The position numbers and the translations under genes were made by a program. The notes under the pieces were generated by a model. It was not told the origin of the DNA, ran no database searches, and saw only the letters and a program-made list of their open reading frames with translations. Shown piece by piece: positions 48,722 to 54,507 of a stretch of 64,000 nucleotides of DNA; within the stretch, counting starts at the first letter, position 1, and every line of letters begins with the position of its first letter. Location of the stretch: contig JBMHCD010000003.1 in the NCBI GenBank assembly GCA_049890095.1, positions 14,036-78,035 on the forward strand. The letters run 5' to 3'. The DNA comes from Flavobacteriales bacterium. GTDB taxonomy: Bacteria; Bacteroidota; Bacteroidia; Flavobacteriales; UBA7312.

Positions 48722-49243
48722 ATGAAAAATTTATTCTATATCATCATCATTTCCTTATTACATAATTTTGGAAAAGCTCAAACTGCTAATGAATTTTTTG
48801 CAATACACCAATTCAATAACATGGCAGCTATAAATTCAGTAACTAGTCCGGTTGAAGATTCGCATGCCTACGACCGAATTGGCAGCTATTTCAATCTTTC
48901 TCATGGAGGATATTATAATTTAAATAATTTTAGCCCTATTGCAGAAATAGAAGAACCTCAACACCCTATTTTCAACAATGTATTTGGCTCTGTTGACTCT
49001 ATATTTTCAGAATATTGGGTTGGCCATTATGAACATCCACTACCATCAGATTTTACAAGCCTGGCAACTGATTCAGGCTTAACGACTGCTAACTCTGTAA
49101 TTGTATCCTATAATAATGGTAAAGCAATTTTTCTTACAGATCATGGATTTTGTTCAAGTACATTTATGAATAATGGAGGAAACATTTCTACACAAACAGA
49201 AATTTTTTGGGCTAATTTATTGTCATGGGCTTTACAAAAATAA
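48722..49243 (+). CDS. Hypothetical exported protein
   Basis: 173-aa ORF filling the gap between atpC and bioF; signal peptide MKNLFYIIIISLLHNFGKA-Q; no family recognised. Confidence 0.6.
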   Translation: MKNLFYIIIISLLHNFGKAQTANEFFAIHQFNNMAAINSVTSPVEDSHAYDRIGSYFNLSHGGYYNLNNFSPIAEIEEPQHPIFNNVFGSVDSIFSEYWVGHYEHPLPSDFTSLATDSGLTTANSVIVSYNNGKAIFLTDHGFCSSTFMNNGGNISTQTEIFWANLLSWALQK

Positions 49244-49300: not shown

Positions 49301-49308
49301 TATATTTG
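49301..49308 (+). promoter_or_regulatory. -7 promoter box (TATATTTG) for the biotin operon
   Basis: TAnnTTTG match 8 nt upstream of ATG 49317. Confidence 0.6.
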
Positions 49309-49316
49309 GATTGATT

Positions 49317-50378
49317 ATGCTAGAAAAAAAATTAATTCAAATACTAAAAAAAAGAGAGCAAGAAAATGCTCTCAGAAGCCTGACTCTTACGACAAATAGA
49401 GTCGATTTTTTTTCTAATGACTACCTTGGTTTTTCTAAAAAAAAATGGGTTTCAACTCTAAGTAACGGTTCTACCGGCAGTAGGTTGCTAAGTGGGAATA
49501 GTCAAATTCATATCGATTGTGAAAACTTTTTATCCAATTTTTACCAAACAGAATCTGCCCTATTGTTCCAATCTGGATATGACGCAAACCTTGGTTTTTT
49601 TTCTTGTGTACCACAAAAAAATGATACGATTATTTATGATGAACTTTGTCATGCTTCCATTCGCGATGGAATGCGGTTAGGTAAAGCTAGAAATTTTAGT
49701 TTCCGACATAATGATTTAGACCATTTAAACGAAAAGATAAATCAAGCTACTGGCAATTGTTTTGTAGTGGTTGAAAGTGTTTATTCTATGGATGGAGACT
49801 TTTCTCCATTAAATGAAATTTCAAAACTATGTCAACAAAAGGGTGCTAATTTAGTAATTGATGAAGCACATGCTAGTGGTATTTTTGGACCGATGGGTCA
49901 AGGAATAGGCTATGATATTCCTAGTTTTGCTCGTATTCATACCTTTGGAAAAGCCTTTGGTTGTCATGGTGCCGTCATTGTAGGTAGCAGTGTTTTAATA
50001 GATTTTCTTATCAATTTTTCTAGACCGCTAATTTATACCACAGCACTTTCTCCCCATTCAGTTAGTTGCATATTGCAAGCTCATCAAGAAATATCAAATT
50101 GTTCAGAAATAAATCAATTACACCAAAATATTAATTTGTTCAAAAAACATATAAGAAATCCTAAACTTATTGATAGTGATTCTGCAATACAATGTATTAT
50201 AATTAGCGGAAATAATGATTGTAAAAAAACAGCACAAAAAATACAATCTGAAGGATTAGATGTTCGCCCAATACTTCATCCTACTGTAAAACAAGGGCAA
50301 GAACGACTTAGAATTTGCCTTCATTCTTATAATACTAAAGAAGAAATTCTGCATCTTTGTCAACAATTAAATCAATGA
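49317..50378 (+). CDS. bioF: 8-amino-7-oxononanoate synthase
   Basis: FFSNDYLG, GSTGSRLLSG, DELCHASIRDG, ESVYSMDGD, DEAHA, TFGKA (PLP lysine). Confidence 0.93.
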   Translation: MLEKKLIQILKKREQENALRSLTLTTNRVDFFSNDYLGFSKKKWVSTLSNGSTGSRLLSGNSQIHIDCENFLSNFYQTESALLFQSGYDANLGFFSCVPQKNDTIIYDELCHASIRDGMRLGKARNFSFRHNDLDHLNEKINQATGNCFVVVESVYSMDGDFSPLNEISKLCQQKGANLVIDEAHASGIFGPMGQGIGYDIPSFARIHTFGKAFGCHGAVIVGSSVLIDFLINFSRPLIYTTALSPHSVSCILQAHQEISNCSEINQLHQNINLFKKHIRNPKLIDSDSAIQCIIISGNNDCKKTAQKIQSEGLDVRPILHPTVKQGQERLRICLHSYNTKEEILHLCQQLNQ

Positions 50379-50986
50379 GCTTTTTTATAACAGGAATAGG
50401 GACAGAAATTGGTAAAACCATTGCTAGTGCAATATTGGTCCAAGCCTTAAAATGGGATTATTGGAAGCCAATCCAATCTGGTGATTTAGACCATAGTGAT
50501 AGCCACAAGGTAAAACAATTAATAAATACAGATAATCACTTTTTTGAAGAAAGTTATCGACTCAAAACACCTCTTTCGCCACATGCATCGGCAAAGATAG
50601 ATAACATAGAAATTGACCTAGAAAAAATAAAATTACCTAAAAAAGATAAGCTAATAATTGAAGGTGCTGGGGGACTACTAGTACCACTCAATCAAAAAGA
50701 AACTATCATCGATTTAATAAAAAAACTAAAAACAGAAGTAATCGTTGTTAGCCGTCATTATCTTGGAAGCATTAATCATACGCTATTAACCATTGATTGT
50801 TTACGGAGAAATCAAATTCCAATCAAGGGTATAATATTTAACGGAGCTGAAAATAAAGATACTGAGTCCATTATTCTATCCACAACAAAAGTTCGTTTTT
50901 TAGGTCGTATTGAGCCAATGAAAGAGGTAAATGCGCAGAGCATATTACAAGCAAGTTTGGAATTTAAACATTTGGCAAATGAATAA
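50375..50986 (+). CDS. bioD: Dethiobiotin synthetase
   Basis: FITGIGTEIGKT, YWKPIQSG, EGAGGLLVP, LGSINHT; ATGA overlap with bioF. Confidence 0.96.
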   Translation: MSFFITGIGTEIGKTIASAILVQALKWDYWKPIQSGDLDHSDSHKVKQLINTDNHFFEESYRLKTPLSPHASAKIDNIEIDLEKIKLPKKDKLIIEGAGGLLVPLNQKETIIDLIKKLKTEVIVVSRHYLGSINHTLLTIDCLRRNQIPIKGIIFNGAENKDTESIILSTTKVRFLGRIEPMKEVNAQSILQASLEFKHLANE

Positions 50987-52223
50987 GCATATTTGGCATC
51001 CTTTTACTCAAATGCAAACAGCTAAAGAGCCTGTAGAAATAACTAGTGCTGAAGGCAGTAAACTATACGATAAAGATGGAAAAAGCTATATAGATGCTAT
51101 TTCTTCGTGGTGGGTCAATCTTCATGGACATTCACACCCGTATATTCGTGAGAAATTGAACGAACAGCACCAAAAATTGGCACACGTTATGTTTGCAGGC
51201 TTCAGCCACCAAGCAGCAAAAACATTATGCTCCGAATTGTGTACGGTTTTACCACCTAATCAACAAAAATTTTTCTTTTCCGGTGATGGTTCTTCTGCTG
51301 TAGAAATAGCTCTTAAAATGGCTATTCAGTATTGGCGTAATAAAGGAGTAAAAAAACAAAAGATTTTGGCTTTAGAAGGTGGATATCATGGTGAAACTTT
51401 TGGAGCAATGTCTGCTGGAGCAAGAAGTATTTTTAGTGCTCATTTTCAAGATTATCTTTTTGATGTCCAACATTTACCATTTCCAAAAAACAAAAAATGC
51501 TTGGAACAACTAGAAAATGCACTTAAAAAAAATGATGTTTGTGCATTTATTTTTGAACCTTTAGTACAAGGAGCTAATGGTATGCGAATGTATAGTAGCG
51601 ATATGCTAGAAAAAATGATACATCTTTGCAATACCTATAACACCCTAACAATTGCTGATGAAGTAATGACTGGTTTTGGAAGGACAGGTACTTACTTTGC
51701 TTGTAATCAAATAAAATCACCAGTCGATTTTATGTGTCTTTCTAAAGGATTATCAGGTGGCACCATGCCTATTTCTTTAACAACTTGCACTAACGAAATT
51801 CATAATAGTTTTTTAGGAAACGATTTTTCAAATGCCTTTCTACATGGTCATTCCTATACTGGTAATCCTCTAGGTTGTGCAGCAGCAATAGCAAGTTTGG
51901 AGCTGCTCAAAAAAGAAAGTTGCCAAAAAAGTATTAATAACATTACTAAGCAACATCAAGACTTTAAAGGTCAATTAGAAAAATACTCTGTTTTGAAAGA
52001 TATACGACAAACAGGGACTATCTTGGCATTAGAACTTAACGATAATGACCCATCATATACTAGCTCCATTGCCTACGATATTTATGGGTTTTTTATGAGT
52101 AAAGGTATTAATTTACGACCTTTAGGTAATGTAATATATATATTGCCTCCATATTGTATTACAAAAGAAGAATTGAATTATATATATAGTAGTATTATTG
52201 ACTTCCTAGACACTCTGAATTGA
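50979..52223 (+). CDS. bioA: Adenosylmethionine-8-amino-7-oxononanoate aminotransferase
   Basis: IWHPFTQM, DAISSWWVNLHGH, GSSAVEIALKMA, YHGETFG, EPLVQGA, DEVMTGFGRTG, LSKGLSGG, RPLGN. Confidence 0.97.
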   Translation: MNKHIWHPFTQMQTAKEPVEITSAEGSKLYDKDGKSYIDAISSWWVNLHGHSHPYIREKLNEQHQKLAHVMFAGFSHQAAKTLCSELCTVLPPNQQKFFFSGDGSSAVEIALKMAIQYWRNKGVKKQKILALEGGYHGETFGAMSAGARSIFSAHFQDYLFDVQHLPFPKNKKCLEQLENALKKNDVCAFIFEPLVQGANGMRMYSSDMLEKMIHLCNTYNTLTIADEVMTGFGRTGTYFACNQIKSPVDFMCLSKGLSGGTMPISLTTCTNEIHNSFLGNDFSNAFLHGHSYTGNPLGCAAAIASLELLKKESCQKSINNITKQHQDFKGQLEKYSVLKDIRQTGTILALELNDNDPSYTSSIAYDIYGFFMSKGINLRPLGNVIYILPPYCITKEELNYIYSSIIDFLDTLN

Positions 52224-52236
52224 GTATCTTTGCTTT

Positions 52237-53382
52237 ATGAATTCAATTGTTATACGCTCCAAAGCAAGTCTTTCCTCATTAGGTCATGAACCAAACACCA
52301 CTTGGGAAAACTATCAAAAAGCAAAATGTTTTATCAATATTTGTTGCTTTAACAATGAAGATACTCCAAGTGCAAGATTAGCCCCTGAATCTCAACAATT
52401 AGTAGACTCTATTCGTAAAGAAAATTCAAACTACCGTAGACTTGATAAAACTGTCATTATGGCAATTGCAGCAGCCCGCATGTGTTTGGAAGGTGACCCT
52501 CAAAATTTAGGAATAAATTTAGGCTCTTCTAGAGGGGCAACTCAATTGTTAGAAAAATATCACAAACATTTTTTAACCTCTAAACAACGATTAAGTCCGT
52601 TAGCCTCTCCAACTACTACTCTAGGAAACATTTCTTCTTGGGTTGCTAACGACTTAGGATCGAATAATATAAATTTATCCCATTCTATAACTTGTAGCAC
52701 TGCATTACATTCGATTTTAAATGCTTGTGCATGGATCAATTCTGGGATGAATGATATATTTTTAGCTGGAGCTAGCGAATCTCCTCTTACAGATTTTACT
52801 GTTAGACAAATGAAATCTTTAGGAATTTATAGTAAATCTATTGATAATTGGCCATGTAAACCTATACACCAAACCGAACAAAAAAATAATATGGTATTGG
52901 GCGAAGGTGCATCCGTTTTTCAATTAGAAAAAGATAATGGTCAGCCAAGCTTAGCAAAAATTATTGGCATAGGATATAGTACAGAAAAAATTAGTCATCC
53001 TACTTCTATTAGTAAAAATGGTGAATCTTTACAAAAGAGCATGCGTATGGCTTTGCAAAACACCAAACTAAACCAAGTAGATGCCATTGTAATGCATGCA
53101 CCAGGAACAATTGCAGGAGATCAATCAGAACTAAACGCTATTAAAATCGTTTTTGGTGACGAATTACCTAACTTAGTTAGCACAAAGTTTCAAACTGGAC
53201 ATACTTTAGGTGCATCGGGAGGATTAAGTCTTGACTTAGCTATAGAAATGATTCAAAGAAATAGAACAATACAGCTTCCATACCCAACAAAATACAGCAA
53301 GAGTGTTTCAGAAATTAAAAAAGTATTGATTAATGCAATTGGCTTTGGCGGAAATGCAGTAAGTTTACTTATATCCAAATAA
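52237..53382 (+). CDS. Beta-ketoacyl synthase, FabF/FabB (KAS II) type, inside the biotin operon
   Basis: Cys-His-His triad in ITCST, MHAPGT, KFQTGHTLGASG; GEGA; C-terminal NAIGFGGN; 381 aa. Confidence 0.85.
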   Translation: MNSIVIRSKASLSSLGHEPNTTWENYQKAKCFINICCFNNEDTPSARLAPESQQLVDSIRKENSNYRRLDKTVIMAIAAARMCLEGDPQNLGINLGSSRGATQLLEKYHKHFLTSKQRLSPLASPTTTLGNISSWVANDLGSNNINLSHSITCSTALHSILNACAWINSGMNDIFLAGASESPLTDFTVRQMKSLGIYSKSIDNWPCKPIHQTEQKNNMVLGEGASVFQLEKDNGQPSLAKIIGIGYSTEKISHPTSISKNGESLQKSMRMALQNTKLNQVDAIVMHAPGTIAGDQSELNAIKIVFGDELPNLVSTKFQTGHTLGASGGLSLDLAIEMIQRNRTIQLPYPTKYSKSVSEIKKVLINAIGFGGNAVSLLISK

Positions 53383-53392
53383 AGATAAAACT

Positions 53393-53400
53393 TATATTTG
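53393..53400 (+). promoter_or_regulatory. Internal -7 promoter box (TATATTTG) before bioB
   Basis: TAnnTTTG match between the KAS stop and bioB. Confidence 0.5.
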
Positions 53401-53421
53401 TGATTGTTAATACATTTTGAT

Positions 53422-54507
53422 ATGAATAAAACATGGACAACAGAAGAAGTGTTGGAAATATACAACCGACCTTTAATGCAATTGGTTTTTGATGCCGCTA
53501 AAAAACATCGAGAAAATCATAATCCTCTAGAAGTGCAAGTAAGCACCCTGTTGTCTATAAAAACTGGGGGCTGCCCAGAAGATTGTGGTTACTGTCCTCA
53601 GGCAGCTCGCTACCACACGGATATTGATAACAATGACCTGATGAGTGTTTCTCAGGTTAAAGCACAAGCATTGCGTGCAAAATCTAACGGTTCTTCTAGA
53701 TTATGTATGGGTGCAGCTTGGCGAAACATTCAAAACAACGAAGAGTTTGATCAAGTTCTAGAAATGGTAAAAACCGTAAATGAATTAGAAATGGAAGTTT
53801 GTTGTACTTTAGGCATGATGACCGAAGATCAAGCTAGAAGACTTGCAGACGCAGGACTATATGCTTACAACCATAATCTAGATACATCAGAAGAACACTA
53901 TAAAGAAATTATATCTACACGCGAGTTTGAAGACCGTAAAAAAACCATATCCAACGCATCAAAAGCTGGTATAAGTGTCTGCTCAGGTGGGATTATAGGA
54001 ATGGGCGAAACAGCAAAAGATAGATGTGCCATGTTAGTCACCCTTGCCAATCTTAATCCACAACCTAAATCCGTTCCGATTAATGCTCTAGTTCCTGTAG
54101 AAGGAACTCCATTGGAAGACCAAGAAATAGTGTCTATTTGGGATATGGTGCGCATGGTTGCCACAACCCGAATAGTTATGCCTAAGGCCGTTGTCCGGTT
54201 GTCGGCAGGTAGAACTCAAATGAGTGATGAAGGTCAAGCACTTTGTTTTATGGCAGGTGCTTCTTCAATTTTTGCTGGTGATAAACTACTTACTACTCCA
54301 AATCCAGACATTAACAACGACATGAAACTATTTGATATTCTTGGCATAAGCCCTAAAGCACCTTTTGTAGATGGTGAACAACCCAAAACAAAAGAAAGCT
54401 ACAAAGAGTGTTTATCAACTAGAGGTAATGTGAAGTGGAACAGACCAAGTCATACTATCGAACGAAACGAAAAAGCAAAACAAAAAGCGAACGATTTAAA
54501 AGTCTAA
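53422..54507 (+). CDS. bioB: Biotin synthase
   Basis: SIKTGGCPEDCGYCPQ (radical SAM CxxxCxxC), RLCMGAAW, CCTLG, YNHNLDT, VPINAL, RLSAGR, GDKLLTTPN; basic C-terminal extension. Confidence 0.98.
   Translation: MNKTWTTEEVLEIYNRPLMQLVFDAAKKHRENHNPLEVQVSTLLSIKTGGCPEDCGYCPQAARYHTDIDNNDLMSVSQVKAQALRAKSNGSSRLCMGAAWRNIQNNEEFDQVLEMVKTVNELEMEVCCTLGMMTEDQARRLADAGLYAYNHNLDTSEEHYKEIISTREFEDRKKTISNASKAGISVCSGGIIGMGETAKDRCAMLVTLANLNPQPKSVPINALVPVEGTPLEDQEIVSIWDMVRMVATTRIVMPKAVVRLSAGRTQMSDEGQALCFMAGASSIFAGDKLLTTPNPDINNDMKLFDILGISPKAPFVDGEQPKTKESYKECLSTRGNVKWNRPSHTIERNEKAKQKANDLKV

Follow-up and report, generated by a model that had tools for sequence, protein, structure and literature searches.

How is the pimeloyl moiety of biotin supplied in a bacterium whose biotin operon contains a fatty-acid-type ketosynthase among the genes of the late steps? 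The question is raised by a stretch of 64,000 nucleotides from the genome of a small marine member of the Flavobacteriales (GenBank assembly GCA_049890095.1, contig JBMHCD010000003.1, positions 14,036 to 78,035; hereafter the window), in which five open reading frames (ORFs), bioF-bioD-bioA-KAS-bioB, span positions 49311-54507 on the same (forward) strand. The fourth of these, at 52237-53382 (+), encodes a protein of 381 residues with the Pfam ketoacyl-synt N- and C-terminal domains, here called KAS (for beta-ketoacyl-ACP synthase, where ACP is acyl carrier protein). The combined evidence suggests that KAS is very probably the enzyme that supplies the pimeloyl thioester in these bacteria: it stands in for the enzymes that make the seven-carbon precursor in other bacteria, and therefore probably does their job.

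Four routes to this precursor have been characterised, i.e. BioC with BioH, BioG, BioK, BioJ or BioV; BioI/BioW; BioZ; and BioE/BioL of the Weeksellaceae; two papers of 2025 on BioE still count four (PMC12704756, PMC12915131). The preliminary description of this DNA had reported that no known pimelate-supplying gene occurs in the window, and this can be extended to the 97%-complete source assembly (1.63 Mb in 11 contigs, the window being part of contig 3), which lacks BioC, BioG, BioE, BioW, a cytochrome P450 and a second FabH. For BioC (TIGR02072) no match over the cut-off was obtained in the genome. The best match (52.8 bits) carries, by reading, a motif of the UbiE/MenG type and the other methyltransferase matches score 27-36 bits, so a hidden BioC was rejected. 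The esterases BioH, BioK, BioJ and BioV were not searched for, but would be without a substrate, since BioC is absent from the genome scan. Searches of all genome ORFs with phmmer, using BioC and BioG of a relative with the cluster bioB-A-F-G-C (G027) and a putative BioE of another relative with the cluster BioL-BioE-bioF-D-B-A (G025), likewise found nothing. Neither BioW (PF03744) nor a P450 (PF00067, for BioI) was matched in the genome, while control genomes were positive. Finally, the genome has just one FabH-type gene, the housekeeping one, and therefore no second KAS III of the BioZ type. The BioE query is an unannotated ORF of 207 residues (L087:6382-7005) beside a MocR-type regulator and bioF-D-B-A, which matched only family f8 among the sampled genomes. 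This presumed BioE has no Pfam or NCBIfam match, and its family is therefore not yet covered by those libraries.

That KAS might be the only FabF of the genome, an objection foreseen in the preliminary description, can be set aside. A second ketosynthase gene, on contig 7 (84718-85977), is a genuine FabF, with a score of 609.6 bits on TIGR03150 (the FabF equivalog; cut-off 493.75) and the arrangement acpP-fabF-rnc. KAS scores 155.1 bits on the same profile and is 26% identical to the genome's own FabF. The identification of KAS as the housekeeping FabF was rejected on these grounds; it is a FabF-fold (KAS II-like) paralogue that has diverged from housekeeping FabF by score, identity and gene context. 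Its fold is evident from an AlphaFold2 model based on an alignment of 45 sequences (mean predicted local distance difference test (pLDDT) 89.9, predicted template modelling score 0.92), the best PDB matches of which are the FabF enzymes of B. subtilis, Listeria and E. coli, with a template modelling (TM) score of 0.87 and about 25% identity.

Relatives of KAS number in the thousands, and are labelled only as 'beta-ketoacyl synthase N-terminal-like domain-containing protein' or '3-oxoacyl-ACP synthase'. A homologue scan with one genome per species gave at least 594 confirmed loci, 80 of which were examined. Nearly all of these are from Flavobacteriales or other Bacteroidota, including the genera Flavobacterium (with F. 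psychrophilum), Tenacibaculum, Cellulophaga, Maribacter and Salegentibacter; the closest loci among the matches listed belong to metagenome-assembled genomes of uncultured marine Flavobacteriales and Cryomorphaceae. Linkage to bio operons, one of the checks proposed in the preliminary description, is found both within the order and beyond it. In 76 of the 80 loci, bioA is followed on its own strand, at a short distance and in most cases immediately, by KAS; typically the genes run bioF-(x)-bioD-bioA-KAS, and bioB often comes next. In three further loci (L008-L010) KAS is paired with bioB only. A phylum-wide sample added four distant homologues (33-48% identity) from other orders and classes, and all of them are in bio clusters: bioB-F-D-A-KAS, bioB-x-F-D-A-x-x-KAS, bioF-KAS and bioA-KAS. 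No recurring gene for BioC, an esterase, an acyl carrier protein (ACP), a reductase, a dehydratase or a coenzyme A (CoA)-transferase was seen in the 80 related loci. An apparent fusion protein of 525 residues in one locus (L108) was rejected as an in-frame upstream extension overlapping bioA in a GC-rich genome, since its homology to KAS begins at residue 219.

The distribution of KAS was compared with that of the known routes by four marker searches (bioA, KAS, BioE and BioC) on the same 151 Flavobacteriales genomes, sampled deterministically. In total, bioA was found in 67 genomes, KAS in 51, BioE in seven (all from family f8) and BioC in eight (seven from family f10 and one from f4). The 67 genomes with bioA divide into 50 with only KAS, seven with only BioE, eight with only BioC and two with none of these, and no genome among the 151 has two of the three. 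Conversely, among the 84 genomes that lack bioA, 83 lack KAS as well, and the sole one that has it is 86% complete. This pattern covers nine families, with repeated joint losses; in families f1, f3 and f16, for instance, the members without bioA likewise have no KAS. The anticorrelation with known routes that the preliminary description had suggested looking for is thus present, both as exclusivity towards BioC and BioE and as near confinement to bioA genomes; an enzyme occupying the slot of BioC/BioG and of BioE would be expected to show such a profile.

Gene linkage and distribution also bear on two other explanations of the operon. KAS could be an ordinary ketosynthase of fatty-acid or secondary-lipid synthesis that rides in the bio operon by chance, the cells importing pimelate or biotin precursors. 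Flavobacteria are known to have several ketosynthase paralogues for flexirubin and aryl-polyene lipids, but the linkage to bio genes extends over hundreds of species and to homologues of as little as 33% identity, KAS tracks bioA in 50 of the 51 genomes that have it and is lost jointly with bioA, and there is no pimelate-activating enzyme in the genome; since KAS follows bioA so closely, we regard a chance association as extremely unlikely. Alternatively, KAS could be an accessory elongation enzyme for methyl esters, the roles of BioC and BioH being filled by a methyltransferase and an esterase that are encoded elsewhere and have escaped recognition. The ketosynthases of E. coli fatty acid synthesis do elongate malonyl and glutaryl methyl esters (PMC9006962), and the genome has several generic class I methyltransferases with weak similarity to BioC (27-53 bits). 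Yet the best of these reads as a UbiE/MenG-type enzyme by its motif, phmmer finds neither BioG nor BioC, and KAS and BioC never occur together in the order, whereas a partnership would predict the reverse. A helper role of this kind fits poorly for that last reason, and appears improbable.

Adjacency of KAS and bioA is not universal. The two are apart in families f15, f6 and f13 (G061:C4, G023:C1 and G084:C28), by about 395 kb in G061; since they co-occur without being adjacent there, the functional link between them is independent of adjacency.

If KAS supplies a pimeloyl thioester by condensation, its catalytic residues should be intact. The triad motifs ITCST, MHAPGT and TGHTLG named in the preliminary description are all present in the protein, and an alignment of 49 family members, including the four distant homologues, shows that Cys153, His287, His322, Lys317 and the GFGG gating loop (with Phe370) are invariant in 49/49. 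With these residues and the loop invariant, the full condensation machinery has been kept. This is the main point against a non-condensing role in pimelate metabolism, in which KAS might, for example, serve as a CoA:ACP transacylase for pimeloyl or glutaryl groups, or decarboxylate a substrate through the ketosynthase active site. Proteins of this fold can indeed be acyltransferases or decarboxylases, a weak NCBIfam match (70 bits) relates KAS to the cispentacin acyltransferase subunit AmcF, and a pocket suited to a dicarboxylate would serve such a role as well. Given the invariant condensation set (both histidines, Lys317 and the gating loop), and with neither pimelate nor pimeloyl-CoA supplied by any gene of the genome (BioW, BioI and BioE all being absent), this role fits poorly and is very unlikely.

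What, then, would the enzyme condense? The acyl pocket was compared with that of FabF by mapping pocket positions through HMMER and MAFFT alignments. The segment G-S-G-I108-G-G-L of FabF corresponds to G-S-S-R99-G-A-T in the KAS family, with arginine in 49/49 members, so that an invariant Arg99 occupies the position of Ile108; a basic residue in the acyl pocket had been among the features that the preliminary description proposed to look for. Phe202 of FabF is replaced by Met192 (46/49), Leu342 by Thr or Ser (48/49), a Gly by Gln191 (49/49), and the hydrophobic 130s loop by S124-P-T-T-T128 (invariant or nearly so). Further pocket substitutions are Gly107 to Ser (Ser98) and Leu111 to Thr (Thr102). 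By alignment, the invariant residues Arg99, Ser98, Thr102, Thr126-128 and Gln191 thus all fall on pocket positions of FabF. According to a review of stand-alone ketosynthases (PMC9006962), Ile108 and Phe202 of FabF form a 'back gate' at about C7-C8 of the bound chain; with the substitution I108F only short chains are loaded, and a glutaryl methyl ester probably reaches with its ester end as far as the I108-F202 gate and no further. In BioZ, the glutaryl carboxylate is neutralised through Ser84, Arg147 and Ser287 (PMC8024396). The long hydrophobic pocket of FabF appears, on our best reading of these alignments, to have been rebuilt in KAS into a short polar pocket closed by arginine. An arginine at the back gate would exclude fatty acyl chains and would put a cation at the free carboxylate of a glutaryl-enzyme. 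The neutral methyl ester of a masked intermediate would leave both the invariant arginine and the polar pocket without a reason, a further point against the helper role considered above.

We propose that KAS is a FabF-fold analogue of BioZ and would form 3-oxopimeloyl-ACP by condensing malonyl-ACP with a primer whose omega-carboxylate is free, glutaryl being the most likely one; this version of the reaction is the one towards which we lean, with moderate confidence. In this scheme, Cys153 would take up a short acyl group with an unmasked omega-carboxylate from its thioester, most probably glutaryl from glutaryl-CoA or glutaryl-ACP. Arg99, together with Ser98, Thr102, Thr126-128, Gln191 and Thr323, would bind the carboxylate and keep out ordinary fatty acyl chains. 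His287, His322 and Lys317 would then decarboxylate malonyl-ACP, and KAS would form 3-oxopimeloyl-ACP, which housekeeping FabG, FabZ and FabI would reduce to pimeloyl-ACP. These three enzymes process 3-oxopimeloyl-ACP with its free carboxylate in the BioZ route (PMC7645780). BioF, BioA, BioD and BioB of the same operon would turn pimeloyl-ACP into biotin, and methylation by BioC and demethylation by BioH or BioG would be unnecessary. The reaction, its primer, the delivery of that primer on CoA or ACP and the use of FabG, FabZ and FabI are what we infer. A FabF-fold functional analogue of BioZ acting on a malonyl or glutaryl primer had been suggested in the preliminary description, and operon linkage, phyletic pattern, the separate FabF and Arg99 in the predicted pocket are all consistent with it.

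A glutaryl primer is favoured for three reasons. First, the position of Arg99 suits a C5 diacid. Secondly, priming with a C3 unit would involve 3-oxoglutaryl-ACP as an intermediate, and this beta-keto acid is liable to decarboxylate. Thirdly, the genome encodes a canonical glutaryl-CoA dehydrogenase (GcdH; contig 9, 224813-226015 (+), outside the window), with 428 bits to human GCDH, so that glutaryl-CoA is expected to be a native metabolite. This gene is retained in a streamlined genome of 1.6 Mb; no lysine-catabolism operon was found among its neighbours.

Several observations weigh against the proposal. On the side of glutaryl supply, the steps from lysine to glutaryl-CoA upstream of GcdH were not identified in the 1.6-Mb genome, in which the pathway was traced no further than the GcdH neighbourhood, and no gene for a glutaryl-supplying partner is conserved in the operons of the 80 loci. 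KAS I and KAS II enzymes take acyl-ACP primers as a rule, and cells have never been seen to contain glutaryl-ACP (PMC7645780); a glutaryl route would require KAS to accept glutaryl-CoA, or else a further transacylase. On the side of the pocket, the model is predicted with less confidence over residues 101-130 (pLDDT 59-75). As to distribution, two bioA genomes are without KAS, BioC and BioE, one of them 72% complete and the other with a solitary bioA, and Fisher's exact test on the 50/1/17/83 table of KAS and bioA gives a p value (5e-24) that is inflated by shared ancestry. The genome with the solitary bioA (G047, 98% complete; locus L089, G047:C6:142000-161500) has no bioF, bioD or bioB within about 10 kb of it; this gene may be a remnant, or may encode an aminotransferase that resembles BioA but serves another purpose.

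The preference of such enzymes for ACP-bound primers, the lack of a conserved partner and the untraced lysine pathway make a malonyl-primed version of the same reaction a serious rival. Here the malonyl group would be loaded on Cys153 with its carboxylate kept free on Arg99, and two condensations with malonyl-ACP (C3 to C5 to C7), with FabG, FabZ and FabI acting in between, would give the pimeloyl chain. Synthesis would halt at C7 because the pimeloyl group outgrows the arginine-closed pocket, and the route would draw on the fatty-acid pool alone, replacing BioC and BioH. All of the genomic evidence fits this version equally. It needs no glutaryl-thioester-supplying partner, and none is conserved in the operons; malonyl-ACP is abundant and, being ACP-bound, is of the kind that KAS II-type enzymes naturally take, whereas glutaryl-ACP is not a known cell constituent (PMC7645780); and the KAS family thrives in streamlined marine genomes of 1.3-2 Mb. 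However, its first product would be 3-oxoglutaryl-ACP, and by chemical reasoning this beta-keto acid, its carboxylate being free, tends to decarboxylate; malonyl, for its part, is normally decarboxylated by ketosynthases and not retained as an acyl-enzyme. Moreover, the site of Arg99, at about C7-C8 of a bound chain (PMC9006962), fits a C5 diacid better than a C3 one, glutaryl-CoA metabolism is present in the genome, and FabG, FabZ and FabI would have to accept C5 omega-carboxy intermediates, an ability not known of them. We therefore consider malonyl priming, as well as the halt at C7 that it implies, a possible but clearly less probable form of the reaction than glutaryl priming.

This genome has none of the four characterised routes, and the same holds for roughly three in four of the sampled Flavobacteriales that make biotin. 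If the role proposed for KAS is correct, a further early-stage route to biotin exists in the representative genomes of at least 594 species, including abundant marine and freshwater flavobacteria, and it extends to fish pathogens such as Flavobacterium psychrophilum. Calls of biotin auxotrophy and prototrophy in microbiome and ocean models, which now score these genomes as pimelate-pathway-negative, would be corrected. It would also mean that a condensing enzyme of fatty-acid synthesis has been converted, for a second time and independently, to the handling of dicarboxylates, with a simple determinant, the change from Ile to Arg at the back gate, and it would provide a one-gene part for engineering the output of biotin or odd-chain diacids. 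Should priming be by malonyl, the precursor could be made without a methyl-ester disguise, without oxygen and independently of lysine catabolism, and the route would be the main start of biotin synthesis in marine and freshwater Flavobacteriia, including major environmental producers of biotin. Only tentatively can it be suggested that one stand-alone FabF-derived ketosynthase suffices to take type II fatty-acid synthesis to pimeloyl-ACP in this way, by malonyl priming, two condensations and a stop at C7.

The other genes of the operon are readily assigned. The first, bioF (8-amino-7-oxononanoate synthase), starts at 49311 (TTG) or 49317 (ATG) and ends at 50378 (+); it has an Aminotran_1_2 domain, and its best NCBIfam match is TIGR00858 (314 bits, under the strict cut-off of that profile). 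It is followed by bioD (dethiobiotin synthase; 50357-50986 (+); TIGR00347, 133.6 bits, cut-off 83.3), bioA (adenosylmethionine-8-amino-7-oxononanoate transaminase; 50931-52223 (+); TIGR00508, 544 bits, cut-off 405) and, after KAS, bioB (biotin synthase, with radical S-adenosylmethionine and BATS domains; 53404-54507 (+); TIGR00433, 398 bits, cut-off 225). When the coordinates were re-derived from the ORFs, the layout given in the preliminary description, with bioF, bioD and bioA overlapping or abutting and KAS 13 nucleotides past bioA and before bioB, proved correct. The start of bioD overlaps the end of bioF by 22 nucleotides, bioA overlaps bioD, and KAS and bioB are 21 nucleotides apart; by these overlaps and short gaps, the five genes are arranged as a single transcription unit. 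The true start of bioA may perhaps be the ATG at 50979, as the match to the TIGR00508 profile starts at residue 21.

The consensus of the Bacteroidota -7 promoter element is TAnnTTTG. From reading of the sequence, a match to it, TATATTTG (49301..49308, +), is a candidate promoter of the bio operon. It is positioned only 9 nucleotides before the ATG of bioF at 49317, so the operon mRNA would perhaps be leaderless or have a very short leader. A scan for sigma-70 promoters and terminators gave nothing above shuffled controls. Between atpD and bioF lies an ORF of 173 residues (48722-49243 (+)), whose N-terminus reads as hydrophobic and which neither Pfam nor NCBIfam matches; relatives have small ORFs in this interval, among them the gene for ATP synthase epsilon.

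Three other kinds of gene recur in or beside the bio operons of the examined relatives, and none of them is present in this window. An ORF of 126-136 residues with weak, sub-threshold similarity to DUF2007 lies between bioF and bioD in 23 of the 80 loci (e.g. L065:1374-1754), a Cupin_8/JmjC-like protein is encoded in or beside the operon in 22/80 (e.g. L073:12354-13226), and a SET-domain protein in 11/80 (e.g. L023:7306-7890).

No description of the flavobacterial KAS was found in the full-text literature; subscription journals were outside this coverage, and an account may already exist. Among known systems, BioZ (PMC7645780, PMC8024396) provides the closest parallel to the proposed function. 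Both are fatty-acid-type condensing enzymes encoded in bio operons of genomes without BioC/BioH, BioW/BioI or BioE. The end of the BioZ pocket is lined by Ser and Arg residues able to neutralise a free omega-carboxylate (S84, R147 and S287), a part for which S98, R99, T102, T126-128 and Q191 are, by alignment, the candidates in KAS. The proposed product, 3-oxopimeloyl-ACP completed by FabG, FabZ and FabI, is also the same. However, BioZ has a FabH/KAS III fold with a Cys-His-Asn triad, whereas KAS has a FabF/KAS II fold with Cys-His-His and a Lys; its fold and triad place KAS outside the BioZ family. KAS II enzymes also take ACP-bound rather than CoA-bound primers as a rule, and BioZ occurs in Rhizobiales, whereas KAS is found in Bacteroidota, mainly Flavobacteriales.

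With FabF and FabB, KAS shares the fold (TM 0.87), the Cys-His-His-Lys set and the GFGG gating loop. It differs from FabF in being only about 25% identical and about 30 residues shorter, in scoring 155 bits against a cut-off of 494, in having Arg and Met in place of the Ile108/Phe202 gate and a polar pocket, and in being encoded in a bio operon and not beside acpP. BioE/BioL of the Weeksellaceae (PMC12704756, PMC12915131) and BioC/BioG occupy the same operon and pathway slot in sister families, where they are mutually exclusive with KAS, but their chemistry is unrelated to that of KAS: BioE is a ferritin-like diiron oxygenase that cleaves long acyl chains oxidatively, and BioC and BioG mask and unmask a methyl ester.

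The nearest precedent in gene content is the extended bio operon of Desulfovibrio, which includes an ACP, a 3-oxoacyl-ACP synthase, a reductase and a dehydratase, and for which Rodionov et al. predicted from genomic evidence a novel route to the pimeloyl thioester in 2004 (PMC545781). Compared by description, the two systems share a KAS I/II-type gene in the bio operon of genomes without bioC, bioH, bioG and bioW (PMC545781). The synthase of Desulfovibrio has its own ACP, ketoreductase and dehydratase, whereas KAS stands alone: no dedicated ACP, ketoreductase or dehydratase accompanies it in the window or recurs in the 80 loci, and it would have to use the housekeeping enzymes of fatty acid synthesis. 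Pimelate synthesis by a KAS I/II-type enzyme encoded in a bio operon is thus not wholly new, having been predicted for Desulfovibrio in 2004 (PMC545781).

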